Shown in pieces: positions 8,686 to 34,938 of a stretch of 64,000 nucleotides of DNA. The DNA is from Stellaceae bacterium (lineage in GTDB: Bacteria; Pseudomonadota; Alphaproteobacteria; ATCC43930; CGMCC-115725), in NCBI GenBank assembly GCA_035945115.1, contig DASZAN010000123.1, positions 28,073-92,072 of the forward strand, read 5' to 3'. The translations under genes and the position numbers were made by a program. The notes beneath the pieces are model-generated. The model made no database searches and was not told the origin of the DNA. It saw only the letters and a program-made list of their open reading frames with translations. The number at the start of each line of letters is the position of its first letter. The stretch's first letter is position 1.

Positions 8686-8868
8686 GAGCGCCCCCCAGCA
8701 AAATTGAGACAATATTATTGACCTATTTTGCCGCTCCGGGCAAGGTGAATTGCGGGCGCGAGCGCACCCCTCCTATGATCCCGCGTCCATCGCCATGCCT
8801 TACCTCATCGCCTTCATCATCCTCTTCCTGCTGGGGCTGCTGGTTGCCTGTGTCGTCTCTTAAGCGTC

Positions 8869-9035: not shown

Positions 9036-9038
9036 AAG

Positions 9039-9890: not shown

Positions 9891-10009
9891 GCCGCCCTGC
9901 AAGGGCGTTTACAGCACAAGACATGCTTGTTACAGTCGCGCCCGCTCGGCACGGGGGTCCTCGGCGGGCTCTTTGGGGCGCAGCACCCGCAGACCGGCGA
10001 AGCGTTCGG

Positions 10010-13711: not shown

Positions 13712-16288
13712 ATGCCGCGCGGAGCGATCGAGGAGAGGGTGCGCCATGCACCCGCCTCATCCGAGGCCATCTGCAACGTCGAAGTGGGCAGCGGCTCGAG
13801 CGCTGCAGAGGATGCCTTTGACGCCGGCGCCGCCGCCGCTCGCGCCGCCATCGCCTCGATCAAGCGCCACCCGCTTTCCGCCCTGATCGTCTATGCGTCG
13901 TCGCGTTACGATGCCGCCGAAATCCTCCACGGCGTCGCCAGCGTGGTGAGCGACAAGACGCCCGTCTTCGGCGTAACGACGGCCGGAGAAGTCGCCAATG
14001 GCCGCACGACGCGGAGCGTCACCGTGGCGGCGCTCGCCTCGCCCCATCTCGTCGTCCATTGCGGCGTCGGCACGCATGTGTCTCGCGATTGGAAGGGCGC
14101 GCTCGCGGCGGCGATCGCCGCGCGCGCGATCCGTCCCTTCTTCGACATGTCAACGGCGGTGCGCCAGCAGTTGGTCCGCGAGGGCAAGAGCGTCTTCGCC
14201 ATGCTCTTCGCGCCAGGAAATACGCGGCATCACGATTCGCGCGGCTTCGAGCTCTTGGAAATGCTGAAGGCGCAATCGCTGGGATATTTCCCGGTCGTCG
14301 GCGGCGCCGCCGCCGATGATTGGTGCTTGGAGAAGAACGCAGTTCTCCTCGGCCGAGACGTCTACACCGACGGCGTGTTGATCGCCATCTTCGAGACCAA
14401 GCTGCAAATCGGCATTGGCCTCGGGCACGGGTTCCGCTCGACCGGACGGACGACCACCGTCACCGACTCGCGCGGCCAGGAGCTCTTGGCGCTCGACGGC
14501 CGGAAAGCCGCCGACGTCATCGCCGAGCTGGTCGGCCAGCCGCGGGAATCGCTGACCGGCAAGCATGTGACCCTAACCACCGGCCACGTCGTCGGCATCG
14601 CCAACGCCATGGGGCAATTCGGGATCAGCGTGTGCACGTTCATGACCGCCAGTGGCGGTGTGCGGATGTCGCAGCCGGTCGCCCCCGGCACGGTCCTCAG
14701 CATCATGGAGCCGGACCCGGACCATATGCGGGCCGCCGGCGCCGATGCCGTGCAGAAGGCGATGCTTCGCGGCGCGGTCACGCAGCCGGCCATCGCGCTC
14801 GTGAACTATTGTGCGCTCCGAGCGCGCATCGTCGGCGCGGAGGAGGCGCACCGCGAGCTGGTCGATATGGCGCGCCCGATCGGCGATGCGCCTCTGGTCG
14901 GCTTTTGCAGCTTCGGCGAGGCGGGACTTGGCGATGACGGCATCAGCCGGCATGCAAACGCCGCCATTTCCGTGCTTGTCATTGGCAAGGAGCTGTCGCA
15001 TGCCGCGCGGGTCGCGCTTGAAGCGGAGGACCTGCGCAAGGCGCTTGAACGGAAGACCGAGGAATTGGAGCAACGCGTTGCCGCTCGCACGCGCGAGCTG
15101 CAAATCGAGAAGGAGCGCGCCGAGGCCGCCGAACGGAAGCTCGCCCACGCCCAAGCGCAGCTCATCGACGCGATCGAAACCCTGCCGGAAGGCTTCGTCT
15201 TCTACGACTCGAGCGACCGCCTCGTCCTCTGCAACCAAAAGTACCGGGAGCGCTATCCCGAATCGGCCGATCTCTTAGTTGCCGGCGCTCGCTTTGAATC
15301 GGTGCTGCGCGACGGACTCGCGCGCGGGCAATATCCGGAGGCGGCTGGCCGCGAGAATGAATGGTTGGCGCAGCGAATGGCCGTTCACCGCCAGCCCTAT
15401 GCCAGCTTCGAGCAGCAAGGAGCGAACGGACGATGGCTCCAGGTGATCGAGCGCCGCACGAACGACGGCGGCACCGTCGGCATCCGCATCGACATCACGG
15501 AGCGAAAGCTGAGGGAATCGGAGCTGCTGCGCGCCAAGGAGACGGCGGAAGTGGCGAGCCGCACGAAGACCGAATTCCTCGCCAATATGAGCCACGAGCT
15601 GCGCACGCCCTTGAACGCGATCATCGGCTTTTCCGACGCGCTCAGTCTCGGCGCAATGGGCGGTGAGCTCAGTCCGAAGCACCGCGGCTACGTTGACGAC
15701 ATCCATCGCTCCGGCATTCATCTGCTCGAGATCATCAACGATGTTCTCGATCTTTCGAAGATCGAGGCCGGTCACCTTGCGCTGCACCCACAGCCGACGA
15801 GCATCGCAGAAATCCTCGGCGTCTGCGAACGTTTGATCCGCGAGCGAGCGCGCGCCAGCGGCATCAAATTCGCGATTGCCATGCCGCCCGACCTGCCGGC
15901 CGTGATCGCCGATCCGCTGCGCATGAAGCAGATCCTGCTGAACCTGCTGTCCAATGCTGTCAAGTTCACGCAGCAGGGCGGCCGCGTCGACCTCACGGTC
16001 TCCTGCACCCCAAGCGACCTCAGCTTCGTCGTCGCGGACACCGGCATCGGCATGCACCCACAAGACATTCTTGTCGCCCTCGAGCCCTTCCGACAAATCG
16101 ACGGATCATTGGCGCGGCGCCACCAAGGCACCGGCCTCGGGCTGCCGCTCGCCAAACGGCTGACCGAACTTCACGACGGACGCCTCGAGATCGCAAGCGA
16201 GCCGGGCAAAGGCACGCAGGTCTCGGTTTCGCTGCCGAGCTCGCGATTAGTGCCAGCGCCGCCCGCTCCCACCGTGGACTTGCAATAG
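13712..16288 (+). CDS. cytoplasmic sensor histidine kinase with N-terminal FIST (N+C) domains, a PAS domain, HisKA and HATPase_c
   Basis: The FIST region spans roughly residues 30-420. A coiled linker follows, then a PAS segment (LPEGFVFYDSSDRLVLCNQKYRE), the H-box (MSHELRTPLNAI), and the N/G boxes. Confidence 0.8.
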   Translation: MPRGAIEERVRHAPASSEAICNVEVGSGSSAAEDAFDAGAAAARAAIASIKRHPLSALIVYASSRYDAAEILHGVASVVSDKTPVFGVTTAGEVANGRTTRSVTVAALASPHLVVHCGVGTHVSRDWKGALAAAIAARAIRPFFDMSTAVRQQLVREGKSVFAMLFAPGNTRHHDSRGFELLEMLKAQSLGYFPVVGGAAADDWCLEKNAVLLGRDVYTDGVLIAIFETKLQIGIGLGHGFRSTGRTTTVTDSRGQELLALDGRKAADVIAELVGQPRESLTGKHVTLTTGHVVGIANAMGQFGISVCTFMTASGGVRMSQPVAPGTVLSIMEPDPDHMRAAGADAVQKAMLRGAVTQPAIALVNYCALRARIVGAEEAHRELVDMARPIGDAPLVGFCSFGEAGLGDDGISRHANAAISVLVIGKELSHAARVALEAEDLRKALERKTEELEQRVAARTRELQIEKERAEAAERKLAHAQAQLIDAIETLPEGFVFYDSSDRLVLCNQKYRERYPESADLLVAGARFESVLRDGLARGQYPEAAGRENEWLAQRMAVHRQPYASFEQQGANGRWLQVIERRTNDGGTVGIRIDITERKLRESELLRAKETAEVASRTKTEFLANMSHELRTPLNAIIGFSDALSLGAMGGELSPKHRGYVDDIHRSGIHLLEIINDVLDLSKIEAGHLALHPQPTSIAEILGVCERLIRERARASGIKFAIAMPPDLPAVIADPLRMKQILLNLLSNAVKFTQQGGRVDLTVSCTPSDLSFVVADTGIGMHPQDILVALEPFRQIDGSLARRHQGTGLGLPLAKRLTELHDGRLEIASEPGKGTQVSVSLPSSRLVPAPPAPTVDLQ

Positions 16289-16411: not shown

Positions 16412-17800
16412 TCAGGCGGCAACCAAGCGCCTCTCGATCGCCCACGCCAAGGTGTCATCGAGGGCGCGCTCGATCCGCACCAGCAACTCGTCGATCTCGC
16501 TTTCAGTCACGATCAGCGGTGGACACAAATTGACGACGTCGCCGAGACCCCGCGTGATCACACCGTGCGAAAGCGCGCACTTGGCCACATGGGCGGCGAC
16601 GGCATCGGCGGGCGCGAAGTTCTCGCGCGTACGCTTGTCCTTGACGAGCTCGAGTCCGGCGACAAGGCCAACGCCGCGCGCCTCGCCGACGAGCGCGTGC
16701 GCGCCGAGGCGCCGCACCCGCTCTTGGAAGCGAGGTGCCACACGGCGCACATGGCCGACGATGTCGCGATCCTCGTAGATCCTAAGCGTCTCCAAAGCCA
16801 CCGCGGCGGCAACGGGGTGGCCGCCATAGGTGAAGCCATGGCCGAAGGTGCCGATTTTTTCGCTCTGCTGCACCGTCGCGCGGTAGATCTTTTCGTTGAT
16901 CATGAGCGCGGAGATCGGCTGATAGGCGGCCGAGAGCTGCTTCGCCATCGTCATCATGTCGGGCTGGAGACGGTACGTCTCCGTCCCAAACATATTGCCG
17001 GTGCGGCCGAAGCCGCAGATCACCTCGTCGGCGATAAGCAAGACGTCGTATTTGCGCAGGATCTCCTGGACCTGCTCGAAATAAGTACGCGGCGGCACGA
17101 TGCAGCCGCCCGACACCATGACGGGCTCGGCGATGAAGGCGCCGACGGTCTCGGGCCCTTCGCGGAGAATGAGCGCCTCGAGCGATTGGGCGCAACGCGT
17201 CGCGAACGCCTCTTCACTCTCGCCCGCTCGTCCAAAGCGGTAGTAGCCCGGGCAATCCGTGTGGAGGACGCGGCCGATCGGCAGATCGAAATCGCGATGA
17301 TTGTTGGGAAGGCCCGTCAGGCTCGCGGCGGCGACCGTGACGCCGTGATACGCCCTGATGCGCGAGATGATCTTCTTCTTCTCCGGCTTGCCGATGGCGT
17401 TGTGGTAGTACCAGACGAGCTTCACCGCGCTGTCATTGGCCTCGGAGCCGGAATTGGCGAAGAAGACTTTCGACATCGGCACCGGCGCAAGCCCAATGAG
17501 GCGCTCGGCGAGCTCGATCCCCGGCTCGTTCGATTTGCCGCCGAACACGTGATAGAACGGCAAGGTGCGCAACTGCCGCACCGCGGCATCGACGAGGCGC
17601 TCTTCGCTGAAGCCCAACGAGGCGCAGAACAAGCCGCCCAACCCTTCGATGTAGCGATTGCCCGCGTCGTCGAAGACATAGATCCCCTCGCCCCGCGTGA
17701 TGACGAGCGGCCCCTCCTTCTCATGCGCGGCGAGATTCGTGTAGGGGTGCAGATAGTAGGCGATGTCGCGAGCTTGCGCGGAATTGAGGCGAGCGCTCAT
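16412..17800 (-). CDS. class III (omega) aminotransferase, aspartate aminotransferase family
   Basis: The start is at MSARLNSAQ. Motifs GLGGLFCASLGF and ADEVICGFGRTG are typical of omega-transaminases. Confidence 0.85.
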   Translation of the reverse strand: MSARLNSAQARDIAYYLHPYTNLAAHEKEGPLVITRGEGIYVFDDAGNRYIEGLGGLFCASLGFSEERLVDAAVRQLRTLPFYHVFGGKSNEPGIELAERLIGLAPVPMSKVFFANSGSEANDSAVKLVWYYHNAIGKPEKKKIISRIRAYHGVTVAAASLTGLPNNHRDFDLPIGRVLHTDCPGYYRFGRAGESEEAFATRCAQSLEALILREGPETVGAFIAEPVMVSGGCIVPPRTYFEQVQEILRKYDVLLIADEVICGFGRTGNMFGTETYRLQPDMMTMAKQLSAAYQPISALMINEKIYRATVQQSEKIGTFGHGFTYGGHPVAAAVALETLRIYEDRDIVGHVRRVAPRFQERVRRLGAHALVGEARGVGLVAGLELVKDKRTRENFAPADAVAAHVAKCALSHGVITRGLGDVVNLCPPLIVTESEIDELLVRIERALDDTLAWAIERRLVAA

Positions 17801-18051
17801 GGGATGCCTCCGGCAACAGCGCCCGACGAACGCCGCCTCGTCGAGATCCGGGAGCTGCGTTGCGTCAGGCCGATATGGAATGCCAAATGGTATACCAACT
17901 GAGGCCGACGCGTCAAAAGCGGCTCGTGTCGCCTCAGTTTGGGTGTGACCGCTCGCACCGGCAAGCCGGATAACGCAGCGTCGGCCGAACATCCGCTTAG
18001 CCCCCGATCGCGGCGCAAAAGCGAACATGGCGAGAGGACCGGGTTGTGCCA

Positions 18052-18110
18052 CAACCGGAAGTCAGTCGGTTGTTCAATCGCCTCGTCGGCGCCGGCAAGA
18101 CGGGACGGGG
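18052..18110 (-). pseudogene. remnant of the C-terminus of a PF04392-type ABC substrate-binding protein gene
   Basis: The minus-strand translation CLPPSRLAGADEAIEQPTD* matches the conserved C-terminus (VLPPTIMVRADEVIE*) of the four intact paralogs. Nothing of the gene remains upstream. Confidence 0.5.
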
Positions 18111-18164
18111 GAAGACACTCGCGACCGCCACCGCGACGAAGAAGTTTCCGCCGAGCTGATCGAG

Positions 18165-19205
18165 CTAGACCGTTCGCAGGAACTCCACCACGGCTGCGTT
18201 TACTTCGGCCGCGCGCTCCTGCTGAACGTGATGGCCGGTGTCGGGGATGATATGTGTCCCTTTGAGGCCGGGAACCGTATTCGGCAGTTGCCGAAGAGCC
18301 TCTGCGCCAAACCCTTTTATGAAAGCATCTTCGCTGCCAGCGATAAAGAGAGCGGGCTGCCGTACTTTCGTGCCTTCCCATGCCGCCGACAATTCCCAAT
18401 TACGATCGATATTGCGATACCAATTCAGCCCACCTCGAAAGCCCGTGCGCTTATATGTGTCGACGTAGTAAGCGACATCCTCCTCAGTCAACCAGGATGG
18501 CGTCTGGTCCGGCACGATGCTTTCGCCAAGGAACCCTTGGCCGGGCTTCATCATCAGTGATACGCCCTTGCCGTAGAGCATAGTTCGCATCGTCCGATCA
18601 ATATCCCGCTCGAACTCGGCCTCAGCGACACCGGGTGTCTGAAAATACTGCGCATAAAAAGTCGTCGTCCCCGCATCCCGAAGAGCTTTCAACGGTGCCT
18701 CTGGTCCCCGCGGGAAATAGGGATTCATGGCAACGACGGCGCGAAAAACATCAGGTCTGAGCTGCGCACAGGCCCACCCGACGAACGCGCCCCAGTCATG
18801 GCCGATGATGACAGCCTGCTTTCCGCCAAGTGTCGAGACGAGTTGAACCATGTCGCCGACATTGTGGACAATCGTGTACGCCGATATGTCCTCGGGCGCG
18901 TCGGTCTGACCAAAACCACGCATATCGGGCGCAACTGCATGAAAGCCCGCGTCTGCGAGCGCGCGAAGCTGGTGCCGCCACGAATACCAGCACTCTGGCC
19001 ACCCATGGCAAAGAAGCACGAGCGGCCCTTGACCCTGTTCGGCGATGTGAAAGCGAATGCCAATCAGCCTAACCATCCGATGCGTCAGTTCGTTCTGCAT
19101 ATTTTGCTCATCATCGGCAGCGACGGCACGTGGGATGAAAGCAGGCGTCAACGTTGAGAGGGCAAGTGCCTGGAGGAAGGTCCGCCGTTCATATGGACCA
19201 ATCAT
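18165..19205 (-). CDS. alpha/beta hydrolase (epoxide-hydrolase-like), Tat signal
   Basis: RRTFLQALALS is a twin-arginine signal. HGWPECWYSWRHQ and GHDWGA provide the nucleophile elbow. GC content is noticeably lower than that of the neighbours. Confidence 0.8.
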   Translation of the reverse strand: MIGPYERRTFLQALALSTLTPAFIPRAVAADDEQNMQNELTHRMVRLIGIRFHIAEQGQGPLVLLCHGWPECWYSWRHQLRALADAGFHAVAPDMRGFGQTDAPEDISAYTIVHNVGDMVQLVSTLGGKQAVIIGHDWGAFVGWACAQLRPDVFRAVVAMNPYFPRGPEAPLKALRDAGTTTFYAQYFQTPGVAEAEFERDIDRTMRTMLYGKGVSLMMKPGQGFLGESIVPDQTPSWLTEEDVAYYVDTYKRTGFRGGLNWYRNIDRNWELSAAWEGTKVRQPALFIAGSEDAFIKGFGAEALRQLPNTVPGLKGTHIIPDTGHHVQQERAAEVNAAVVEFLRTV

Positions 19206-19262
19206 GATGGCTCTCCTTGCATCCAACCCGCTACCCATTCAACGCGAATAGACTCGCGGCCC

Positions 19263-20249
19263 TTACTCAATCACCTCGTCGGCGCGGACCATGATTGTTG
19301 GTGGAAGCACCACGTCGAGCGCCTTTGCAGTCTTCATATTCACAACTAGGGTAAATCTCGTTGGCTCCTCGACTGGCAAGTCCGACGGTCGCGCTCCCCT
19401 AACTATCTGGTCGGCTAAAGCAGCCGTGCGGCGGTAACTCTCCGCTAATGATGGCCCGAAAGACATCAAGCCGCCGTCCTGCACCTCCGGCGGAAAGGAG
19501 TGGATGGAAGGGAGATGATGAGCAAGCGCCAGCTCGGCGACTTGCTTCCGCCGCCCGAACAGTGCGTTGTCGGTCATGAAGACTAGGCCTTGTGCCCCAG
19601 CTCTTACCGCGTCGTCGAATGCCGGGGCCAAATCATCGACTCCCGCGAGTTCGCGCGGATAGACTTCGATGGCCAATCTCGAGGCTGAGCGGCGAATGTC
19701 ATCGAGCATCGCCGCATTCTCAAGCAGTGAAGCGCTCCAGATCACCGCCACGCGCTTCGCGCTTGGAATAGCATCCACGAGCAGCTCCAGACGCTTGCCG
19801 CCTAGCTCCGCTTCGCTATAAGCAACTCCGGTGAAATTCCCCCCGGGATGCGCGAGGCTTTCGACGATGCCGAGCCCAACCGGGTCCGCGACGGATTGGA
19901 AGACGACGGGCGTCACGAGACCCGCGCGTTTGATCGCCAGGACAGCGGGAGACGTAATGGCGATGATCACGGTTGGCTTCTCGGCGCCAAGATGCTCGAC
20001 GAGCATTCTTAAGCGCTCCTCATTTCCTTCGGCGCCGAGCAGTTCAATTTCAGCGGTGCGGCCATCCTCGTAGCCGAGCGCGCGAAGCTCCGCGAACAAG
20101 TATTGGACTGGTGATCGATTTGGGAAGCCACTGTGCAGGATGCTGATGTGCGGTCGTCCTTGCGCAGATGTGGGGGTTGCACCGGCGATAAGCAGCGCTG
20201 CGGTAGCTGTTGCTGGGCCGAAGAGAGCAATGAACGTCCGCCGCCTCAT
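19263..20249 (-). CDS. ABC transporter substrate-binding protein, PF04392/COG2984 family (paralog 1)
   Basis: Tat-like MRRRTFIALFG start. The C-terminus LPPTIMVRADEVIE is shared by all paralogs. Confidence 0.8.
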   Translation of the reverse strand: MRRRTFIALFGPATATAALLIAGATPTSAQGRPHISILHSGFPNRSPVQYLFAELRALGYEDGRTAEIELLGAEGNEERLRMLVEHLGAEKPTVIIAITSPAVLAIKRAGLVTPVVFQSVADPVGLGIVESLAHPGGNFTGVAYSEAELGGKRLELLVDAIPSAKRVAVIWSASLLENAAMLDDIRRSASRLAIEVYPRELAGVDDLAPAFDDAVRAGAQGLVFMTDNALFGRRKQVAELALAHHLPSIHSFPPEVQDGGLMSFGPSLAESYRRTAALADQIVRGARPSDLPVEEPTRFTLVVNMKTAKALDVVLPPTIMVRADEVIE

Positions 20250-20616
20250 TTGTCCCCCTTATTCGTCGGACGCGGCGTGACCAAGCTGCGCCCAATCGCT
20301 CCTATTCTATCAGGCTACAAGAGGAAGGCGTGTGCGAAACGTCACAGCTTCTGGCTCTTTCCGGCTTCCGGCACTCGCCATCGCTGCCGCAATCGCGACG
20401 TCTGAGTTGGGTCAACAGCAGCGGTCGAGACAGCGCCCGCATCGCGTCTGCGTACCCGCGGATTGTGTTGTCAAACTCGGTTTTTCTCGGCGAACCGGAC
20501 CCAGAGTTGCGGATTTGCCGCCTCACGCCGGGCTGCCTGGCATAAGTCTAGGCTGGGCAGGCAGATCCCGCCGTTGGCGGCGCGCGCCAGAGGAGTTTGG
20601 CAAGTCGTCTCAGGTT

Positions 20617-20850
20617 CTGCGCCGTTGCCGTGAGCAGGACCTCGTCCCTGGCACCGCTTAACCCTCGCAGACCAGGTCGTCGCTGGCTGCGGCTCGGTGC
20701 CAGAAACTGACCCACAGGGTAAAGCCCTTTCTCCGCGATCGCCGCGACCTTATTGGCGGTAGCACCGTGCGCATTGACGTTCGGCCGGACGCCTAGCCAC
20801 CCGCCGCCGGCGTCAGTCCGTTTCGATCGGCAATGACATATCCTTCGCCC
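20617..20850 (-). mobile_element. IS5-family transposase C-terminal remnant
   Basis: The minus-strand translation ...VRPNVNAHGATANKVAAIAEKGLYPVGQFLAP...ATAQNLRRLAKLLW resembles the conserved C-terminal end of IS5/IS1182-type DDE transposases. There is no N-terminus or inverted repeats. Confidence 0.4.
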
Positions 20851-21687
20851 ATTCACCCATAGAGCCGTCATAGAGCAATAGATTGTCGTAGCCCAGCTGG
20901 TACAGCAGGAAGAGATCGATGGTGGCAGAAATACCGCCGCCGCAATAGCAGATGATCTGCTTCTCCTTGGTCACGCCCTCCGCCGCGAAGCGCGCCGCAG
21001 CATCGCTCGGGGCAACGAAATCTTTCGCCGCGGGGCTTATGAGCGCCGCGGCCGGGACATTGACGCTGCCCGGGATCCGCCCTGGCCTGCCGTAGCGGCT
21101 GGGATCGCGACCGCTGTGGAATTGCGGGCCAAGCGCATTGACCAGGACGACATCCCGGCAATCGAGCGCCGCGAGGACCGCTTTCTTGTCGACGAAGAAG
21201 CCCGGCCGCGGTGCGGCCTCGAAGACGGAAGGGGGATAACCCTTGGCGGGTCCGCTCTCGGTGGGACGACCCTCAGCCCGCCATTGTCAAAGCCGCCATC
21301 GAGCACCGCCGCTTCGTCGAAGCCGAGCGACTTGAGCATCCACCAAAAGCGTGTCGCCCACATCATCGTGCCGATGCTGTAGAGGACGACACGAGTTCCC
21401 TGGCCGATGCCGTGACGCGCAAAAGCTCTCTCGAGCGCGGCCGCCGTTGGCATCATGAAGCGCAGCCGCGTGGCAGCATCGGAGAACTCGCCCTGCAGGT
21501 CGAGAAAATCGGCGCCGGGGACATGCGCCTCTTCGAAGCTTTTGCTCCCGGGAACGGGAAGGTAGGGGTCGTCGCTGCCAGGGGGCGCGGGAGCGAGATA
21601 GGTCGTGCAGTCATAGACTCTCAGATCCGCGCGGCCCAGCTCGGCGGCCAACTGCGCGGTGCTGATGAGCGCCTTCGAGTCGCGCAT
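20814..21687 (-). pseudogene. sseA: 3-mercaptopyruvate/thiosulfate sulfurtransferase (two rhodanese domains) interrupted by a -1 frameshift
   Basis: The N-terminal rhodanese domain reads in one frame up to ...LDGGFDNGG. The C-terminal domain (AEGRPTESGP...QIICYCGGGISATIDLF...MGEWAKDMSLPIETD*) continues in another frame. A single missing base is inferred near 21265-21275. Confidence 0.6.
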
Positions 21688-21780
21688 CACCTTCCTCGAA
21701 AAACTGCCGTGATTGAACGGCGATCCTAGCATTATTCGGCAACGCCATTTAAGAGTTATCGAGGGTCCGAGATGGGTCAA

Positions 21781-21955
21781 ACTCATTGGCCTCGGAGCCG
21801 GAATTGTGTCGCCTCAGTTTGGGTGTGACTGCTCGCACCGGCGAGCCGGATAACCCGTCGTCGGCCGAACGTCCGCTTAGCCCCCGATCGCGGCGCAAAA
21901 GCGAACATGGCGAGAGGACCGGGTTGTGCCATAAGCAGAAGTCGGCTGCTCATTC
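21781..21955. repeat. duplicated composite fragment: 23 bp from inside the aminotransferase CDS (17437-17459) joined to about 125 bp of its upstream region (17929-18050)
   Basis: Direct sequence comparison shows near-identity, with the junction at ggaattg|tgtcgcc. In both copies the fragment is followed by an SBP gene 3' end. Confidence 0.7.
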
Positions 21956-22933
21956 AATCACCCCGTCGGCGCGCGCAATCAGCACTGGCGAAATCTCGAG
22001 GTTAAGCGCCTTCGCGGTCTTTAGATTGATGATCATGTCGAAGTGGGTCGGCTGCTCGATCGGGATGTCGGCTGGTTTCGCGCCCTTGGCGATGCGATCG
22101 ACGTACAACGCCACATCTCTGAGGACAGCGGTGACAGTGACGCCATAGCTCAGCAGTGCACCCGATTCGGCGTGCTCGGGAAACGCGCCGATGGCGGGGA
22201 TGCGACGCTCGAGCAGAAGCGCGAGAAGCGCCACCCGATCGCGATAGAAGCGCGGAGTCGCCGGGATCACCAAGGGCGCACCCGGTGTCTCTGCCATGGG
22301 TGCGAGAGCGGCCGAATAGTCGGGCGGCTCGCCGCTAGCCTCGACAAGATGAGGCTCGAAACCGAGCGTTCTCGCCACTTCCGCTGCGGCGTCGGCTTGG
22401 TCGCGCGATACCGCATCCCACAGCAGCCAAAGCGCGCGCGCCTCGGGCATGGCTTGCCGCGCGAGCTCGACGCGCTTCTTTGCCAACTCGATTTGGCGAA
22501 CGAATATCCCGGTCATGTTGCCGCCGGGCTTGGCGAGGTTCGTGACAAAGCCCTTCGCGAAAGGATCGAAGTCGAGGGCAAAAAAGACCACAGGAACTTG
22601 GTTTCCCGCAGCGCCCACTGCCGCGCTGAGCGCCGCCTCGTTTCCAGCGGCAATGAGAATGTCGCAGCCGCGAGCGGTCAGCTCGCGATAGCCCGCCGCA
22701 TAGTCGTCGAGGCTCCGTATGTGCACGAAGTCAAAGGCGAAGTTCGCACCCTCTTGGTAGCCGAGCTCGCCCATGCGCTTCACAAACGCGTCGTGCTGCG
22801 CCGAGCGTGGCAGCAGCGTGACATAGCCGACGCGCAACATCTTCTGTGGCGACTGCGCGACGGCGCGGGCCAAGGGGACGAGGACAGCGGTCAGCCCTCC
22901 AAGGGCCGCACGCCGGGTCATACCGGCGCTCAT
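21950..22933 (-). CDS. ABC transporter substrate-binding protein, PF04392 family (paralog 2)
   Basis: Same family as the other paralogs; ends in ADGVIE; its start overlaps the paralog 3 stop. Confidence 0.8.
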   Translation of the reverse strand: MSAGMTRRAALGGLTAVLVPLARAVAQSPQKMLRVGYVTLLPRSAQHDAFVKRMGELGYQEGANFAFDFVHIRSLDDYAAGYRELTARGCDILIAAGNEAALSAAVGAAGNQVPVVFFALDFDPFAKGFVTNLAKPGGNMTGIFVRQIELAKKRVELARQAMPEARALWLLWDAVSRDQADAAAEVARTLGFEPHLVEASGEPPDYSAALAPMAETPGAPLVIPATPRFYRDRVALLALLLERRIPAIGAFPEHAESGALLSYGVTVTAVLRDVALYVDRIAKGAKPADIPIEQPTHFDMIINLKTAKALNLEISPVLIARADGVIE

Positions 22934-23904
22934 TCGATCACCTCGTCGGCTTGGGCGAAGAGCGAGGGCGGGATGGTCAGGCCGAGCGCATTGGCGGTCT
23001 TGAGGTTGATCACCAGCTCGAATTTAGTCGTCCGCGCCACCGGCAGGTCGGCGGGTTTTTCGCCCTTGAGAACGCGGCCGGCGTAGACGCCAGCGAGGCG
23101 ATAGGAATCCGCGCGGCTGGCGCCATAGCTCATCAGGCCCCCGGCCGCGACGTAGTCGCGATACTGGTAGATCGAAGGTACCCTGTGTTTAGCGGCCAAC
23201 GCCGCGACCTGCTCGCGCCGGTCATCTAACAAATTCCCGCTGCCGACCATGAGCGCGTCGGCGCGCGGTTGGGTTAATTCCACGAACGCCGTATCGATCT
23301 CACCGGCGGTGCTGGCCTTGAGGATACGGATTTGCAGCCCGAGCGCTCGCGCCGCCTCCTCAATCTCATTGGATTGGGTCTCCGCTCGCGGATCGTTCGG
23401 GTCCACGAGCAACCCGACAGTCTTGGCCGCAGGGAGCAAATCGTGCAGCACCCCTAGTCGCTTCGCCACCAACTCGGAACTCAGCTGGGTGACGCCGGTG
23501 GCGTTGCCGCCCGGCCTGTTAATGCTCGCGACGAGGCCGAGTTTGACGGGGTCACCGGCTGTCTCGAAGACGATCGGAATGACCGTGGTCGCGGCCTTGG
23601 CTGCAAGGGCCGCGGATGTACCAGCCGCTGCGATCAGGCTTACCGGGCGCCCGACCAACTGCGCCGCAAAGGCTGGCAGCCGATCCAGTCGATTTTCCGC
23701 CCAGAGATAGTCGACTGTGACGTTTTGACCATCGGCGTAGCCGGCTTCCTTCAGGCCCGCGACAAAGGCCGACGTGTTGCGCCGAAGCGGCGCGGCCGAT
23801 CCGCCGCTGAGGTAGCCGATCGAGGGCATGGTCGCCTGCGCGCGCGCCGCCAGCGGCCACGCCGCAGCGCCGCCGACAAGCGCGATGAAATTCCGCCTCC
23901 TCAT
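22930..23904 (-). CDS. ABC transporter substrate-binding protein, PF04392 family (paralog 3)
   Basis: MRRRNFIALVGGAAAWPLAARAQ Tat signal; ends in ADEVIE. Confidence 0.8.
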   Translation of the reverse strand: MRRRNFIALVGGAAAWPLAARAQATMPSIGYLSGGSAAPLRRNTSAFVAGLKEAGYADGQNVTVDYLWAENRLDRLPAFAAQLVGRPVSLIAAAGTSAALAAKAATTVIPIVFETAGDPVKLGLVASINRPGGNATGVTQLSSELVAKRLGVLHDLLPAAKTVGLLVDPNDPRAETQSNEIEEAARALGLQIRILKASTAGEIDTAFVELTQPRADALMVGSGNLLDDRREQVAALAAKHRVPSIYQYRDYVAAGGLMSYGASRADSYRLAGVYAGRVLKGEKPADLPVARTTKFELVINLKTANALGLTIPPSLFAQADEVIE

Positions 23905-23951
23905 GTGTGGATGGCCCCCGCGATGCAAGAGGTCATGGAGCGCGTGGTGCC

Positions 23952-24932
23952 TCACTCAATCACCTCGTCGGCGCGGACCATTAGCGAAGGTGGAATTGTT
24001 AGCCCGAGCGCCTTTGCCGCCTTTGCATTGAGAACCAGCTCGATCTTGGACAATTGCACCACCGGAAGATCGGCGGGCCTTGCGCCGCGGAGGATGCGCC
24101 CGACATAGGCGCCAGCCTCGCGATAAGCGATTGCGTAGTCCGGCCCGTAACTCGCGAGGCCTCCCGCCTCGGAATAGTAGCGCGTATCGAATATCGCCGG
24201 CACAGCTTGGCGAGCGGCAAGCGCAACCAATTGCTCGCGCCGGCTCTCGAAAAGCGGACTACTCGAGACCAGGAGTGCATCAGGGCGCTGCTGAGCAAGG
24301 CTCGCGAAAACGCGGTCGAGTTCCCTCTCGCTGCTGGCTTTGAGGACATTGAGCCGCACGCCAAGCCGGTTCGCTGCTACTGGTAAAGATGCAGCGTCGA
24401 ACTCGGCAACCGCGGTACCGGGATTGACGAGGACGGCGATGTTCTCAGCGGTGGGCACGAGATCGTGCAATATCTCAAGCCGCTTGGCCGTTAGCTCCGA
24501 GGAAAGCAGGCTAATGCCGGTGACGTTTCCGCCCGGTCGGTTGAGTGTTGCGACGAGGCCGGAGGCGACGGGATCGATCCCGGCGGTAAACACGATCGGA
24601 ATATTGGCAGTCGCTCGTTTTGCCGCTCGTGCTGAGCGGCCGCCGCCGGTCGCGGCGATAACGGCGACGCCGCGTGCGGCGAGATCGCGCGCCAATTCGG
24701 CGAGCCGATCATCGTTGCCCTCGGCCCAGCGGTACTCAATCGCGACATTCTGGCCCTCGACATAGCCGACCTGACCAAGGCCGATCTTGAAGGCCGCGAC
24801 GCGCGGCGCCCACGGCGCGGGCCACGCGCTGTTGAGAAAGCCGATCACCGGCATCGGCGTCTGCTGCGCACGCGCAGCAAATGGCCACGATGCTGCCGCA
24901 CTCACGGCGATCATGAAATCGCGCCGCCTCAT
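23952..24932 (-). CDS. ABC transporter substrate-binding protein, PF04392 family (paralog 4)
   Basis: MRRRDFMIAVSAAASWPFAARAQ; ends in ADEVIE; the first gene of a three-gene tandem. Confidence 0.8.
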   Translation of the reverse strand: MRRRDFMIAVSAAASWPFAARAQQTPMPVIGFLNSAWPAPWAPRVAAFKIGLGQVGYVEGQNVAIEYRWAEGNDDRLAELARDLAARGVAVIAATGGGRSARAAKRATANIPIVFTAGIDPVASGLVATLNRPGGNVTGISLLSSELTAKRLEILHDLVPTAENIAVLVNPGTAVAEFDAASLPVAANRLGVRLNVLKASSERELDRVFASLAQQRPDALLVSSSPLFESRREQLVALAARQAVPAIFDTRYYSEAGGLASYGPDYAIAYREAGAYVGRILRGARPADLPVVQLSKIELVLNAKAAKALGLTIPPSLMVRADEVIE

Positions 24933-25266
24933 GTCTCCCCCTGGCCCCAACCGCCCCTATTCTATCAGGCTACGGACTAGCCGGCGTGCGAAACGTCACA
25001 GCTTCCGCTCTTACGGGCCTTGGGCGCGCACGAATACCGCCGCTCCTTGCGATGTCTCAGTTGGGTCAAAGTGAGAAGAGCTGTGCCGTCACGCATAGGT
25101 CGGTAAACCGCCTGAAGGCGGACTTGCGGAGAGCAAAGCGTTTGGTTGCACTTTGACCCTAACCGGTCATTGTCCTTGCTAACCAGCCGGCGGCGGCAAT
25201 GAGACCGAGGCGGGCCAATTGATACGGTCGAAAACGTCACCGAATTCGCCACAGGCGCCGCGCCTC

Positions 25267-26142
25267 TCACGCGAGGTTCCGGATGCTCCGATGACGGTGC
25301 GGTGCAAGCTCCCGCGGAAGCGCCCTCCGGTTCAGCCCGCCCTCGTCGATCCATTTCTGCGATGATCGGACGGCCTGTTCGATGAGCGATCGCGCGGCCG
25401 AGAAATCGAAGGGAGACACGGCGAGCGGGCACAGCGTCGGCACGACGTGAACCTCGATGTCCTGGGGCATCCGCTCCAGTTCATAGATGAGCTGCCAATT
25501 AATCATCAAGGTGATCGCGTGCAGCGCCTTGGCGATCGCGCGCTTCGGCGGTTCTATCAGCGCGCAGGCGTAGCCGGTCGGAAGAATGATGATCCGCGAC
25601 GCCCCGAGCTCAATGGCCAGGCGCACGGGTGTGTTGGCCGCAATCGCTCCGTCCATCAACGCTTCGCCCTCGATCTCCACGGTCGGGAAAACCCCAGGGA
25701 TCGCCGTGGTCGCCAGAATGGCCTCGACCGCCAGACCAGTGGACAGGCGAACCGCCAGCCCCTGCTGGTTCGTCGCCATGATGTGGAGCGGAATCTGCGC
25801 CTCCTCCAGACGCTCAAAGGGCAAATTTCTTTCGACCACTTGGCGGAGCCCACCCGGATCGACGACGTTGCCCGGATGTCTGATGAGCCCGAGGACGCTC
25901 CCCAGGGTCAACGGAAAAATGTCTGAGCGCCGCAGACCCGACCAGATCCGCTCCAACGCGGCGACCCCTCCGGCGTTCGGGGTGCCTGCAAAGTAGCTCG
26001 CGTTGATCGCGCCGACCGACGCACCAACCACGAAATCTGGTTGCACCCCAGATGACAATAATACGCGCAACATGCCAACTTGGATCGCACCGAGGCTTCC
26101 CCCGCCGGCGAAGACGAATGCTGTTTTCCTGCCCTGAGCCAC
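25267..26142 (-). CDS. patatin-like phospholipase
   Basis: FAGGGSLGAIQVG (oxyanion and Gly-rich motifs), GASVGAI (GxSxG) and DGA. The start is uncertain (GTG near 26142). Confidence 0.75.
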   Translation of the reverse strand: MAQGRKTAFVFAGGGSLGAIQVGMLRVLLSSGVQPDFVVGASVGAINASYFAGTPNAGGVAALERIWSGLRRSDIFPLTLGSVLGLIRHPGNVVDPGGLRQVVERNLPFERLEEAQIPLHIMATNQQGLAVRLSTGLAVEAILATTAIPGVFPTVEIEGEALMDGAIAANTPVRLAIELGASRIIILPTGYACALIEPPKRAIAKALHAITLMINWQLIYELERMPQDIEVHVVPTLCPLAVSPFDFSAARSLIEQAVRSSQKWIDEGGLNRRALPRELAPHRHRSIRNLA

Positions 26143-26349
26143 AGAGCCCCGTCCTTCTTCCTGCCCGACCGCCGGCCCCCTCGACAATCGGTCGACCTTG
26201 CTTATTCCATGAGATAAGTCGCCATTCCCGCCGAGCGCCCTATCGACTGATCAACAGCGGTCATGGACTGACGCGAGATCACCCCCTCGGGAGCTTCTCG
26301 CGCAGCACGACGCCGATCCCAAACTTGTAGACCAACTGGCCGCACGAGA

Positions 26350-26574
26350 TCAGTGGCCAATCCCGGCAACGGATCGTAGTCCCCCCTCCGCCCAGCGGTA
26401 TTCGATTGCAACGTTCTGACCCTCGCGATAGCCCGCTTCACTGAGCCCTTGCAGAAAGCCCGCCAAGTAAGGCGCGTATCCCTGTCGCGATGCTCCATTG
26501 AGAAAGCCAATCACCGGCATCGCCGCCTGATCGGCGCGCGCCAGCAGGGGAGCCGCGACGGCTGTGCCGAGCAC
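26350..26574 (-). pseudogene. 5' fragment of a fifth PF04392 SBP paralog (truncated after about 65 codons)
   Basis: N-terminal [46 protein letters not shown] matches the paralogs, then diverges and terminates. It is preceded by the same conserved upstream element. Confidence 0.55.
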
Positions 26575-26727
26575 ACCTATGAAATGGCCCCGCCGGATTT
26601 GTCCCCCCTCGTCGCCTGCTCTGGCGAAACCTCGCTGCGCTGAATTGAGGCTATTCTATCACCTTGGCATCGGGCGGGTGTGCGAAACCTCACCCGGTGG
26701 TACCCTAGAGCCCGAACGAGGGTTTTT

Positions 26728-27408
26728 ATGGAACTGAACGCCGACTTCTCCAAACGCGCCGTCGTTCATGCCGCGCGCGTTTCGTGGGTGCCCTCGCCAA
26801 TTGCTGGGGTCGAAAGGCGCATGCTCGACCGGATTGGCGAAGAGGTGTCACGCGCCACGTCGATCGTGCGCTATGCGTCGAACTCGCGTTTCTCCGCGCA
26901 TACCCATGGCGGCGGTGAGGAGTTCATCGTCCTCGACGGTGTGTTCTCTGACGAGCACGGCGATTTCCCAGCCGGCTCTTACATCCGCAATCCACCGGGT
27001 TCACGCCACACGCCGGGCTCGGAAAAGGGATGCATCATTTTCGTGAAGCTCTGGCAGTTCGATCCCGAAGACCGCAAGCACGTCCGCATCGACGCGACCA
27101 AAAGACCGTTTTTGCCCACGCGGGATCGGCCGGGGGTTGAGGTTTTGCTGCTGCACGAAGACGCGCGCGAAAACGTGCGCCTTGAACGTTGGAGCGCGGA
27201 TACGCAAATCTTTCTGCGCGCTACCGGCGGAGCGGAAATCCTGGTTCTCGAAGGTGGCTTCAGCGACGGCGACGAGACGTTTGAACCGCAATCCTGGTTG
27301 AGGTTGCCCGTCGATGCGATGCTCACGGCTCGGCCCGGCGCGAACGGTTGCAAAGTCTGGGTCAAGACCGGCCATCTCGCGCGACCGCAAACCGCGCCGA
27401 GGCTTTAA
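26728..27408 (+). CDS. bicupin protein (ChrR-like cupin domains)
   Basis: Two cupin beta-barrel motifs (HTHGGGEEFIVLDG ...). Confidence 0.6.
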   Translation: MELNADFSKRAVVHAARVSWVPSPIAGVERRMLDRIGEEVSRATSIVRYASNSRFSAHTHGGGEEFIVLDGVFSDEHGDFPAGSYIRNPPGSRHTPGSEKGCIIFVKLWQFDPEDRKHVRIDATKRPFLPTRDRPGVEVLLLHEDARENVRLERWSADTQIFLRATGGAEILVLEGGFSDGDETFEPQSWLRLPVDAMLTARPGANGCKVWVKTGHLARPQTAPRL

Positions 27409-27479
27409 GTCTTTCGAACCTGTCGCAAGGCGTAGGCGCTAAAATGTTCGGCGCCCTCTTGGTCGCCAAGCTCGCCCCG

Positions 27480-28298
27480 CTAAAGGATCTTCGAGAGAAA
27501 CGCCTGCGTCCGCTTTTGAACGGGGCTCAGGAAGAGGCGGTCGGGCGTGCCCTCTTCGACGATCCGGCCGTCGTCCATCATGACCACGCGATCGGCGACC
27601 TCGCGGGCAAAGCCCATCTCGTGCGACACCACGATCATGGTCATGCCCTCGCGGGCAAGCTCCCGCATCACCTCGAGCACCTCGCCGATCATTTCCGGAT
27701 CGAGCGCGCTGGTCGGCTCGTCGAACAGCATGAGACTCGGCTTCATGGCGAGCGCGCGCGCGATCGCGACGCGCTGTTGCTGACCGCCCGACAATTGCGC
27801 CGGATAGACATCGACCTTGTCGGATAGGCCGACGCGGGCGAGGAGGTCACGGCCGATTGCAACGGCCTCGCGCTCGGGGATGCCCAAGACATGGATCGGC
27901 GCCTCGATGACGTTGCCGAGGGCGGTCTTGTGGTGAAACAGGTTGAAGCGCTGGAAGACCATGCCGATTTCGCGCCGCTGCCGCGCGATGTTCCGCTCGC
28001 GGTCCTCCATCAAGCGGCCACGGCTTTCGCGATAGCCGATCAGGTGTCCGTTGACGAAGATGCGGCCGCTCTCGATCTTTTCGAGGTGGTTGAGACAGCG
28101 CACGAAGGTGGTCTTGCCGGACCCGGACGGGCCGATGATGACCACCACCTCGCCGCGCCGAACGGTGAGCGACACACCCTTCAAAACCTCGAGCTTTCCG
28201 TAGGATTTGCGCACCTCGACGGCGCGGACCACCTCCTCGCTCGCGGGCTCGGGGACGCCGCCGATCGACGATACAATATCCGCGCTGGCGCCGCTCAT
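27480..28298 (-). CDS. amino-acid ABC transporter ATP-binding protein
   Basis: Walker [10 protein letters not shown], signature [15 protein letters not shown], and Walker [13 protein letters not shown]. Confidence 0.9.
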
Positions 28299-29077
28299 GC
28301 CTTCTTCCGCACCGCCGCGAAAATCGCGGAGCCGAAGAAGCGCTCGCCGAAGCCCGGCACGATGGTGGCGCGGCCCGAGGGCTCGCTGCAGCGCAATTCG
28401 ATCCGGTTTTGGATGATGCCCCAAAGGGTGGTGAGCGTGAGATAGTAGAGCGCCACGACGGAATAGAGCTCGAACACGCGGAACGTCGCCGATGTCAGCG
28501 TCTCCGTCGTGAGCAACAGCTCGGGCACGCCGATGACGCTGACCAGCGTCGTGTTCTTCAGCATCGCGTTGAATTCGTTGCCGAGCGGCGGGATCACGAA
28601 GCGCGCCGCTTGCGGCAGCACAATTCGCCGCATCAGGAGCCCATAAGTCATGCCGACCGATTTCGCCGCCTCGGTCTGCCCGCTATCCACCGCGGAGATG
28701 CCGGCGCGGATGATCTCGGCCATATAGGCCGTCTCGTTCAAGCTCAGCGCGACGAGGCCCGCTTGGACATTGCCGGGGATGGTCAGGATGCCCAGCGAGA
28801 TGTCCTCGAAGCGGAAGATGCCGCCGGCAGCAAGGCCCGTGTAGATGAAGACGATCTGAACCAGGAGCGGCGTTCCCCGCATGATCCAGATATAGCCGCG
28901 TACCAGATACTGGAGCGGCGCTAGTCGCGACATGCGGCCGAGCGCGGCGAACAGGCCTAAAAGCGTGCCGAGCGCCTGTGCGGCGACGCTCAGCACCAAC
29001 GTCAGCATCAGGCCATGGAGATACGCCGAACTCGGACGAAGCAAATAATGCCAGAAGAAAGGCCAATCAAAGCTCAT
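28295..29077 (-). CDS. amino-acid ABC transporter permease (His/Glu/Gln/Arg/opine family)
   Basis: TM protein with an EAA-like loop; overlaps the ATPase gene by 4 nt. Confidence 0.8.
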
Positions 29078-29086
29078 CGGCCTTCC

Positions 29087-29941
29087 TCACTTCATCATGT
29101 CTCCCTCGATATGCCACTTCTTGAGGATAGCGAGCAGTGCGCCGTCCTGCTTCATGGCATCGACCGCCTTCTGGACTCCCTCGGCCATTCCCGCATCGTT
29201 CTTGCGCAGCCCGATCGCCGTGAGGATCTGGTGGAAGGGCGGACCCGCCACTTCGAACGTCTTCGGCGACTTGTCCATATAGTAGGCAGCACTCTCGAGT
29301 GTCGTGCCGTAGACGTCGACTTGACCGATCTGCAGCGCCTGCAGCGCGTCGGTATCCTTCGGGAAGACGACGACGTCGGCTGACTTCTTTCCGGCCGCTT
29401 GGAACTTCTTGTTCTGATCCTCGATCAGCTCCTGGATGGTGGTTCCGTTCTCGACCGCCACCTTGTGGCCGGAGAGATCCTCGATCGAATGGACCTTCTT
29501 GGGATTGCCGGAATGAACCAGGAACGCCTCGCTCGAATTCATGTAGTCGACGAGGTCGATGGTCTGACGCCGCTCGGGCTTGTCGAAGAGTTGCGAGATG
29601 ACGGCGTCGCATTGCTGCGCCAACAGGGCGGGAACGAGGCCTTTGAACGGAATATTCTTCCATTCGACCTTCACGCCGAAGCGCTTCGCGATCTCGTTGC
29701 CGATGTCGATGTCGGAGCCGACCGGCTTGGTGCTCTCGTCGAGAAACTCGATCGGCGGGCTCGTCATGTCCGAGCAATAAACGATCGCGCCGGAGTCGGC
29801 GATGCGTTTCGGCGCCATGGCGCTGGCCGCCGCAGCGCTGCCGGGGAGCGCCACGCCCCATCCGATGAGCGCGGAACAAGAAACGACCAGCGATAGTATC
29901 AGGCTAGGGCGAGCGTCTCGCCCGGCTTGCTCGTGTAGCAT
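29087..29941 (-). CDS. amino-acid ABC transporter substrate-binding protein (SBP_bac_3)
   Basis: A signal peptide followed by a periplasmic-binding-protein family 3 fold. Confidence 0.75.
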   Translation of the reverse strand: MLHEQAGRDARPSLILSLVVSCSALIGWGVALPGSAAAASAMAPKRIADSGAIVYCSDMTSPPIEFLDESTKPVGSDIDIGNEIAKRFGVKVEWKNIPFKGLVPALLAQQCDAVISQLFDKPERRQTIDLVDYMNSSEAFLVHSGNPKKVHSIEDLSGHKVAVENGTTIQELIEDQNKKFQAAGKKSADVVVFPKDTDALQALQIGQVDVYGTTLESAAYYMDKSPKTFEVAGPPFHQILTAIGLRKNDAGMAEGVQKAVDAMKQDGALLAILKKWHIEGDMMK

Positions 29942-32071: not shown

Positions 32072-32082
32072 GACGCGGCGAG

Positions 32083-33221
<1,139 letters not shown>

Positions 33222-33225
<4 letters not shown>

Positions 33226-34906: not shown

Positions 34907-34938
34907 ATGCTTCAGCATCAACAGGGGAGGATGATTTC

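Follow-up and report, generated by a model that had tools for sequence, protein, structure and literature searches.

How are genes for solute-binding proteins switched on when they have multiplied with no transporter beside them, and does their regulatory DNA descend with each gene or move from one gene to another? Soil bacteria often have such orphan expansions, about whose ligands, partner proteins, and regulation next to nothing has been established. The question is raised here by a 64,000-nucleotide (64-kb) stretch of contig DASZAN010000123.1 (GenBank assembly GCA_035945115.1), hereafter the window, which comes from a Stellaceae bacterium (Rhodospirillales) rather than from the Bradyrhizobiaceae, in which an original prediction for this locus had noted such expansions. 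Its minus strand carries a single gene (S1), a triple operon (T1, T2, and T3), and two relics, all of the PF04392 family of ATP-binding cassette (ABC) substrate-binding proteins. The original prediction took a short motif shared upstream of S1, of T1, and of the 5' relic to be a common regulatory site that had been duplicated with the genes. Our analyses suggest that the shared element is probably a lineage-specific 5' regulatory cassette, a class II CRP-type promoter that heads every unit of this expanded, orphan family with N termini of the twin-arginine translocation (Tat) type and that was spread by recombination among diverged paralogs.

Two motifs locate the element. GTGA[C/G]GTTTCGCAC occurs at 20332-20345, 24986-24999, and 26680-26693, and TGATAGAATAG at 20302-20312, 24957-24967, and 26651-26661; neither has a further copy in the 64 kb (chance expectation for the 11-mer TGATAGAATAG, 0.05 matches), and the two are always paired, on the minus strand, directly upstream of S1, T1, and the 5' relic. 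Both the element and the open reading frames predicted on the minus strand are real, and the three copies stand, but the conserved block is larger than the ~50 bp first described, covering ~70 to 100 nt from a dyad through approximately codon 7. It consists, in order, of the dyad TGTGA-N6-GCAC(A/G), a spacer of 17 to 18 nt, an extended -10 element (TGATAGAAT), a leader, a G-rich ribosome site, and the start ATG-AGG-CGG-CG, which encodes a Tat-like M-R-R-R. The typical dyad (16 bp, TGTGA-CGTTTC-GCACA) forms a sharp 5' edge, the leader runs for 20 to 50 nt and usually contains GCGCAGCTAGGTTCCCGCCGC, and the cassette ends at ATG-AGG-CGG-CGC-GAx-TTC. In S1, 54 nt lie between the -10 element and the ATG at 20249, including GCGCAGCTTGG and the ribosome site GGGGGAC; in T1, a short stretch of 26 nt without the GCGCAGCTAGGTTCCCGCCGC block leads to the ATG, and the same short form is seen in the T1 orthologues of metagenome contigs L118-L122. 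The spacer comes in two subtypes, A with a GC-rich hairpin and B ending in GTAGCC (S1 and T1), both of which the window holds. No copy of the cassette precedes T2 or T3, which overlap by 4 nt where T2 stops and T3 begins, so the element marks the starts of transcription units and not of genes. By the same token the genes are expressed as arrays of binding proteins only, which bears on the idea of one shared transporter.

What the cassette might do is suggested by its geometry, which we read as that of a predicted sigma-70 promoter lacking a -35 box, with the dyad as a putative class II site for a regulator of the CRP/FNR family. The 16-bp dyad is followed by 17 to 18 nt, TGn, and TAnnnT, placing the dyad center at approximately -40.5/-41.5 relative to the predicted -10 element. 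The distance from the dyad to the second -10 position (the A of TAnnnT) is 21 bp in T1, the relic, and most metagenome copies and 22 bp in S1, L123, and the minus-strand copy of L118. A spacing of 22 bp has been described as exclusive to class II CRP promoters, and the palindrome TGTGA-N6-TCACA as conserved among CRP proteins of distant phyla (PMC10187061); the same palindrome is protected by CgrA, a cGMP-responsive CRP of Rhodospirillum centenum, another member of the Rhodospirillales (PMC4681086). Against that palindrome, TGTGACGTTTCGCACA, the dyad of S1 and of most metagenome copies, matches 9 of 10 positions, and the dyads of T1 and the relic match 8 of 10 each. It is the combination of dyad spacing, a 9/10 consensus match, and the absence of a -35 hexamer that leads us to propose a class II promoter dependent on an activator; the missing hexamer is also why a consensus promoter scan misses it. 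With the class II CRP/FNR promoters of Escherichia coli CAP and of CgrA it has in common a 16-bp dyad, TGTGA-N6-(T/G)CACA, over the -35 region, the 21- to 22-bp spacing, the lack of a -35 hexamer, and a strong -10 element (extended here), and it is unlike them in its right half-site GCACA, in its conserved center, and in that no regulator gene was found in the window. A CRP-like regulator encoded elsewhere would then switch on the whole battery of binding proteins together, with each promoter driving either a single gene or a translationally coupled array of binding proteins only (three genes here, up to eight elsewhere); the cassette thus probably places the entire family under one common switch. 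Other promoter types were compared by eye: neither the GG-N10-GC spacing of a sigma-54 promoter nor the GGAAC/CGTT-type bases and spacing of an extracytoplasmic function (ECF) sigma promoter fit. The published, degenerate RegR box of Bradyrhizobium (TGCGNC-N3-5-GNCG), from another organism, bears a loose likeness to the reverse strand of the dyad only.

Further copies were sought with a strict pattern of 22 bases (GTGANGTTTCGCAC-N15-22-TGATAGAAT). It had no match among the 185,579 genomes of GTDB species representatives (one per species) and 36 matches on 34 soil-metagenome contigs; the cassette likewise had no match among PLSDB plasmids. Of 34 assessable matches, 31 were followed, 36 to 55 nt past the -10 element, by a start of the form (A/T)TG-A(A/G)(G/C)-CG(G/A)-CG (M-R/K/N-R-R), and the remaining 3 were broken copies. 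The aligned copies shared nothing upstream of (C)TGTGACG; the shared block took in the spacer, the -10 element, a leader with the consensus AGCCTCAATTCAGCGCAGCTAGGTTCCCGCCGC, a G-rich ribosome site (GGGAGGGGGAC), and the first codons through ATG-AGG-CGG-CGC-GAx-TTC, past which the coding DNA was unrelated. The mature parts of the 19 distinct proteins encoded downstream had a median identity of 39% (range, 31 to 99%), against a median nucleotide identity of 83% for their leaders, which were unconstrained by the search, and 86% for the whole cassette over ~115 nt. Sampling that was independent of the motif, by protein search with T1 (metagenome orthologues 65 to 86% identical), added four cassettes outside the strict pattern. 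Their -10 variants all retain TGnTAnnnT and the same spacing, and their dyad variants retain the half-sites around a center of CGTTTG, GGTTTC, or TGTTTC. The constant features are TGTGA, GCACA, the TG two bases ahead of the hexamer, positions T1-A2-T6 within it, and the spacing, as expected of an extended -10 promoter that is preceded by a protein site and not of an RNA structure or a repeat. One of the broken copies, on contig L093 (~97-214 onward, minus strand), is cut after ...GGTTCTCGCCGCGCAG and continues into an open reading frame starting MPAQYVKAYVKRNKNNAADAEAI. This frame resembles, as we take it, the N terminus of an IS110-family transposase, and the case raises the possibility of an IS110-type element that targets the conserved leader.

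Several observations weigh against this promoter reading. The -10 element and the activator site are both predictions from the sequence, and since the metagenome copies were chosen with both held fixed by the search, their invariance there is uninformative; only four cassettes were sampled independently of the motif. The GTTT at the dyad center is as conserved as the half-sites, which is unexpected for a pure CRP site and may reflect common origin. T1 has GCACG as its right half-site, and the first bases of some copies are GGTGA, AGTGA, or CGTGA. The 64-kb window yielded no gene of the CRP/FNR family, and the cassette count likewise covers 64 kb rather than the whole genome. No function can be assigned to the conserved leader block, which the T1 cassette lacks although it looks intact. 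The GC-rich spacer hairpin of subtype A (down to -14 kcal/mol; mean z, -1.4; a few compensatory changes) is left unexplained by the promoter model; subtypes B and C lack it, so it does not belong to the core.

The cassette is lineage specific. Its dyad was absent, even with 3 mismatches allowed, from all 80 loci of other taxa that encode relatives of T1 (Pseudolabrys, Bradyrhizobium, Bosea, other Stellaceae metagenome-assembled genomes, Rokubacteria, and Betaproteobacteria). Nor did those 80 loci yield any convincing upstream motif of their own, only scattered GCTAnnnT boxes resembling a -10 element and a faint resemblance to the leader (TTAGCTTGG) in Pseudolabrys-like loci. The distribution is most economically read as a spread of the cassette, through homologous recombination or gene conversion, to paralogs whose divergence came earlier. 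Several cassette-bearing proteins are closer to foreign, cassette-less proteins than to one another (70% identity to a Pseudolabrys protein for L108, 63% to a Bradyrhizobium protein for L115, and 60% to a Stellaceae protein for T1, versus a median of 34 to 41%). Protein similarity is 0.39 within a cassette subtype and 0.40 between subtypes; the subtype is thus uncoupled from the protein. Beside the cupin gene, the window and contigs L082 and L085 are 87 to 88% identical through the cassette and then encode different paralogs, the synteny breaking at the cassette 3' end, within the first ~10 codons. T1 orthologues lie directly behind a cassette (window and L118-L122) or come second in an array, behind a first gene that bears the cassette (L117). 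Recombination would have run through two kinds of conserved sequence, the 5' block and the ...GCCGACGAGGTGATCGAATGAGGCGGCGC junctions between genes, and the same process would yield truncated 5' and 3' relics. Solo 5' relics are present in the window and on L118, L089, L092, and L111, and a solo 3' end in the window; in addition, L101 (1516-1633) and L110, which have the same sequence, carry a collapsed gene of which only the first 7 and last ~10 codons are kept. There, the cassette and MRRREF are fused within a few codons to a C-terminal ...AQADEV..., as if the body had been deleted between conserved ends.

No recombination at all would be needed if the cassette were as old as the family, held by extreme purifying selection for a lineage-specific regulator, and lost or replaced elsewhere. 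Dyad, -10 element, leader block, and ribosome site are kept and the spacer is free, which is the pattern of functional selection, and in two organisms with 85% identical proteins the orthologous T1 cassettes have remained stable. Such vertical descent nevertheless seems unlikely to us: it needs many independent losses (0 of 80 loci) and leaves unexplained the subtype uncoupling, the synteny break, and the occurrence of T1 orthologues as either first or second gene of an array.

The block might also act as RNA, that is, as a leader recognized by a small RNA or an RNA-binding protein or one that sequesters the ribosome site, with the promoter elsewhere. Small RNAs such as GcvB of enterobacteria and AbcR1/2 of Rhizobiales coregulate many binding-protein mRNAs through a short sequence in the 5' untranslated region. 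The 21-nt leader block GCGCAGCTAGGTTCCCGCCGC and an unusually long G-rich ribosome site are conserved without having been forced by the search, and by inspection the leader UUCCC could pair with GGGAG. Unlike those small-RNA regulons, however, the block here includes the promoter, and its leader block is dispensable in T1, whose cassette, like those of its orthologues, lacks that block yet looks intact. No relevant Rfam match was obtained in 17000-28000 at an E value of ≤1, and a scan of the whole window at gathering scores gave tRNAs only; RNAalifold over 29 cassettes found only 4 invariant pairs, all inside the dyad, and no covariation. Conservation moreover ends sharply at the dyad, and nothing promoter-like is conserved further upstream, which makes an RNA-level function distinctly improbable as the main explanation.

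The original prediction, in which the promoter was copied together with each gene so that the upstream similarity is residual homology, fares worse and is in our view very unlikely. Common gene ancestry is expected for paralogs of one family, and S1 and T1 do share a repetitive extragenic palindrome (REP)-like module ~60 nt further upstream in the same register. But the paralogs are 28 to 39% identical to S1 (the closest pair, T1 and T2, 53%), so the duplication was not recent, and neutral upstream DNA of that age would be unrecognizable; what is seen is identity of the 14-mer and of the 11-mer and, over the 19 proteins, a leader identity of 83%. The cassette is also missing from closer homologues in other taxa. 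The empty foreign loci, the closer cassette-less relatives, the uncoupled subtypes, and the shifting position of T1 orthologues all argue against simple co-duplication.

Alternatively, the block and the gene junctions could serve as homology handles by which genes are shuffled behind a fixed expression site, in a system of recombination rather than regulation. The synteny break at the cassette, the solo 5' relics, the collapsed gene of L101 and L110, and the uniform array junctions are what it would produce. Yet there is no associated recombinase or invertase gene, silent copies are absent since each unit comes with a promoter, and the relics are ordinary products of homologous recombination among repeats; we give this possibility little credence. 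A generic REP or miniature inverted-repeat transposable element (MITE) lying near these genes by chance can practically be dismissed, for although REP-like modules flank many cassettes (with inverted copies in L084) and a related module follows the last genes, the core lacks terminal inverted repeats, contains the start and first codons, and occurs only before PF04392 genes, with no copy elsewhere in the window. The fixed distance to the start codon and the -10 variation of a kind that promoters tolerate likewise point to a gene-specific regulatory site, which bears out this part of the original prediction.

Returning to a regulatory cassette spread by recombination, one close counterpart is the class of putative mobile promoters, upstream stretches of at least 50 to 100 nt at ≥80% identity that are reused before different genes of a genome (Matus-Garcia et al. 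2012, PMC3488235). The cassette resembles them in having >50 nt at ≥80% identity and in being uncoupled from the history of the downstream gene; it differs in that the class was defined on nonhomologous genes, whereas the genes here are all PF04392 paralogs, and in that the block reaches into the first signal-peptide codons. With cassettes ~85% identical and proteins ~39% identical, it offers a clean case for the spread or homogenization of regulatory DNA among paralogs, and so sharply defined a shared cassette is a direct experimental handle on the signal and the regulator of the whole family. More tentatively, a single CRP-like regulator of the cyclic-nucleotide type may control a very large Tat-exported orphan battery through a portable cassette actively copied from paralog to paralog, with the binding-protein-only operons as exchangeable modules that capture ligands on behalf of a single distant transporter or sensor. 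If true, regulons would here be growing in a new way, in which the cis-element and not the gene spreads.

Orphan status itself was borne out. No PF04392-type permease or ATPase was found in the cluster, and in the nearest ABC systems (27480-29941 and 31801-35985) the permeases are of the BPD_transp_1 type and are accompanied by dedicated binding proteins (SBP_bac_3 and SBP_bac_8). An ABC ATPase of any kind lay within 6 kb at only 9 of 51 related loci of ≥10 kb from other taxa, and some of these loci had 6 to 7 genes ending in ADEVIE. Downstream genes frequently overlap by ATGA or GTGA through a near-uniform junction, GCCGACGAGGTGATCGA(A/G)TGAGGCGGCGC. The window array has 3 genes, L117 has at least 4 PF04392 genes, and L123 has 8 consecutive ones (2637-10441; 32 to 69% identical) behind one cassette, nearly all with 4-nt overlaps; the L123 array adjoins pspA/pspB and a sigma-54 activator gene. 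Since arrays are found and ATPases are few in other taxa as well, both traits belong to a wider subfamily, unlike the cassette. By analogy with other expansions, the proteins may deliver many ligands to a shared, distant permease and ATPase or to sensor proteins. The closest analogy in function is with the orphan Bug/TctC proteins of Bordetella and Cupriavidus, periplasmic binding proteins whose paralogs number in the tens, have few membrane components or none encoded beside them, and presumably share a transporter or act in signaling (PMC5812351). They belong to PF03401 and the tripartite tricarboxylate transporter (TTT) systems, versus PF04392 and ABC systems here. To our knowledge, Bug genes have neither a common promoter cassette nor polycistronic arrays of binding proteins only. 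In the searchable literature on PF04392/COG2984 and on orphan binding proteins of Bradyrhizobium, neither the expansion nor the cassette was found described. The locus varies on three known kinds: the promoter of a regulon, the promoter that propagates, and the orphan expansion of binding proteins.

Table 1. Cassettes, binding-protein genes, and neighboring features (coordinates are those of the window; metagenome contigs are given by handle)
Feature	Position	Strand	Description
S1 cassette	20250-20346	minus	dyad TGTGACGTTTCGCACA at 20331-20346; 18-nt spacer; -10 element TGATAGAAT at 20304-20312
T1 cassette	24933-25000	minus	dyad TGTGACGTTTCGCACG at 24985-25000; 17-nt spacer; TGATAGAAT at 24959-24967
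5' relic cassette	26599-26694	minus	subtype A; dyad GGTGAGGTTTCGCACA at 26679-26694; TGATAGAAT at 26653-26661; full leader AGCCTCAATTCAGCGCAGCGAGGTTTCGCC...
L118-L122 cassette			85% T1 orthologue; dyad TGTGACGTTTGGCACA, 17 nt, TGATAGAAT
L117 cassette			dyad TGTGACGTTTCGCACA, 17 nt, TGGTATGAT
L123 cassette			dyad TGTGACGTTTGGCACA, 18 nt, TGCTAGAGT
L118 cassette, opposite strand			dyad TGTGAGGTTTCGCACA, 18 nt, TGGTAGACT; 46-codon relic behind
S1	19263-20249	minus	intact single PF04392 gene; 328 aa; N terminus MRRRTFIAL, C terminus RADEVIE; 140.9 bits
T1	23952-24932	minus	heads triple operon; 326 aa from ATG 24932; MRRRDFMIAV; 163.8 bits
T2	22930-23904	minus	second operon gene; 324 aa from ATG 23904; alternative start GTG 23955
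T3	21950-22933	minus	third operon gene; 327 aa; MSAGMTRRAAL; 89.5 bits; ATG shares 4 nt with T2 stop
5' relic	26377-26598	minus	T1/T2-like gene; start ATG to ATC at 26598; homology lost beyond ~73 codons
3' relic	18073-18110	minus	binding-protein gene end, ...LAGADEAIE; stop codon gone
REP-like upstream module	20395-20415	minus	TTGACCCAACTCAGACGTCGC; common to T1 upstream region and many metagenome contigs; outside core cassette
REP-like element upstream of T1 cassette	25010-25170	minus	GGGTCAAAGTGC ... TTTGACCCAACTGAGACATCGC; ~72% identical to L084 intergenic region
Repeat copy 1	17926-18098	minus	binding-protein 3' end and downstream REP-like flank, upstream of aminotransferase gene
Repeat copy 2	21783-21978	minus	downstream of T3; colinear with 17433-18098 minus 17456-17925
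Alpha/beta-hydrolase gene	18165-19238	minus	24-58 nt downstream of S1; own twin-arginine motif RRTFL (ERRTFLQAL)
IS1182-family transposase relic	20555-20680	minus	C-terminal ~40 residues; tblastn matches in 726 plasmid records
Two-domain rhodanese (sulfurtransferase) gene	20813-21786	minus	two frames, 21037-21786 and 20813-20974

Where the original prediction had counted five paralogs, two of them degraded, the degraded pieces were indeed two but the total is six, four intact genes and two relics. The predicted family held for S1, T3, T2, and T1, which match Pfam PF04392 essentially in full (140.9, 89.5, 162.5, and 163.8 bits, respectively, against a gathering cut-off of 25.9; profile positions ~17-293 of 293). 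The predicted 5' fragment exists, at the shifted position and with the altered start codon given in Table 1; it scored 15.7 bits, under the cut-off, and is 50 to 55% identical to T1/T2 across 73 residues (tblastn). No additional copy of a PF04392 gene was detected by tblastn in the window. The predicted triple with 4-nt overlaps is accurate for T2/T3, whereas T1 and T2 overlap only if GTG 23955 is the start; the 48-nt spacer that results from ATG 23904 is conserved with a junction on contig L117 and so favors that ATG. Structural relatives include 3LKV (5.5e-34), 3LFT (5.3e-26), and 6HNI (2.7e-25). Scores to the TrpX equivalog NF041285 of NCBIfam (59.5 to 149.3 bits) stayed far under its cut-off of 390, so these are distant family members and not tryptophan-binding orthologues. 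TrpX-type proteins (3LFT, 3LKV, 6HNI, and Streptococcus suis TrpX, PMC9382623) have the same full-length domain, but the window genes do not lie beside TrpYZ-type genes and have a Tat-like rather than a lipoprotein signal and a promoter cassette rather than a T-box.

All intact copies had been said to begin MRRRxF, which is true of S1, T1, and T2 (MRRRxF(I/M)) and not of T3 (MSAGMTRRAAL). Read by eye, the N termini are MRRRTFIAL...SAQ, MRRRDFMIAV...ARAQ, MRRRNFIAL...ARAQ, and MTRRAALGGL...AVAQ, each with a hydrophobic stretch and an AxA after the arginines, and the Tat-like character proposed for them (RRxF[IM], hydrophobic core, AxA) is upheld in this sense. The TAT_signal model gave no match, either in Pfam at an E value of ≤0.01 or in NCBIfam at ≤0.1, so that the proteins are putative Tat substrates, by their motif.

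Several REP-related sequences accompany the cassettes. Modules of the form TTTGACCCA-N5-GACATCG lie ~60 nt upstream of many of them, including those of S1 and T1, and stand apart from the core. Elements whose ends are inverted (GGGTCAAAGTG ... TTTGACCCAnnnnnGACATCG) occur at both window positions listed in Table 1, in L084 (200-393), and in L118 (~2700-2800), and the Pseudolabrys-like loci L008, L036, L050, and L075 have a similar TGACCCAAAGCGGACAT repeat. Several units, among them those that end in T3 and in the 3' relic, also carry a related module behind their last gene. This 3' module has a small hairpin directly after the stop codon, in compensatory variants (GCAG/CTGC and CCGG/CCGG), and then TTATGGCAC(A/G)AC...; it was seen at 21872-21950 and 17992-18072 in the window, at 6855-6943 in L094 and 4454-4561 in L096, and after the stop in L104, L108, and L115. 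It could be a terminator or a relative of REP.

The region from 17.9 to 26.7 kb is a mosaic, as predicted, with G+C and third-position G+C lower than in its flanks and with an IS1182-family relic, a split rhodanese gene, and a duplicated, then deleted aminotransferase 5' end. The predicted 3' remnant is part of a repeat (17926-18098 versus 21806-21978; 89% identity) that takes in the last 26 nt of a binding-protein gene. The colinear stretch 17433-18098 comprises the binding-protein 3' end, intergenic DNA, and the start of a class III aminotransferase gene; the second copy is without 470 bp (17456-17925) and is therefore a deleted copy of the aminotransferase 5' end. Between the repeat copies lie S1, an alpha/beta-hydrolase gene, the IS1182-family relic (no Pfam match at 20555-20680), which sits between the S1 upstream region and the rhodanese gene, and the rhodanese gene itself, likely a pseudogene since it is split over two frames. 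The hydrolase gene may well be cotranscribed with S1; the pair recurs on contig L001, and this partner may hint at the S1 ligand. Besides the hydrolase and rhodanese genes, the cluster has patatin and ChrR-type cupin genes as neighbors. The cupin open reading frame as mechanically called (26680-27408, plus strand) has its GTG start inside the reverse complement of the relic-cassette dyad, and its true start is more likely the ATG at ~26728. The divergent gene would then begin just ~35 nt from the dyad, and the two may be regulated in common. Past the aminotransferase gene, a FIST-PAS histidine kinase (13712-16288, plus strand) without an adjacent response regulator showed no link to the cassette. 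An array of tRNA genes spans 37567-42106: ARAGORN called 27 in 37000-42500, of which Rfam confirmed 16 at gathering score, and 25 are packed on the plus strand at 39495-42106, covering most amino acids. Alphaproteobacteria seldom have such dense tRNA arrays, which are often a sign of mobile DNA or of DNA derived from phages; this one starts in a stretch of lower G+C (0.58 to 0.59 at 38 to 40 kb and 0.63 further on).

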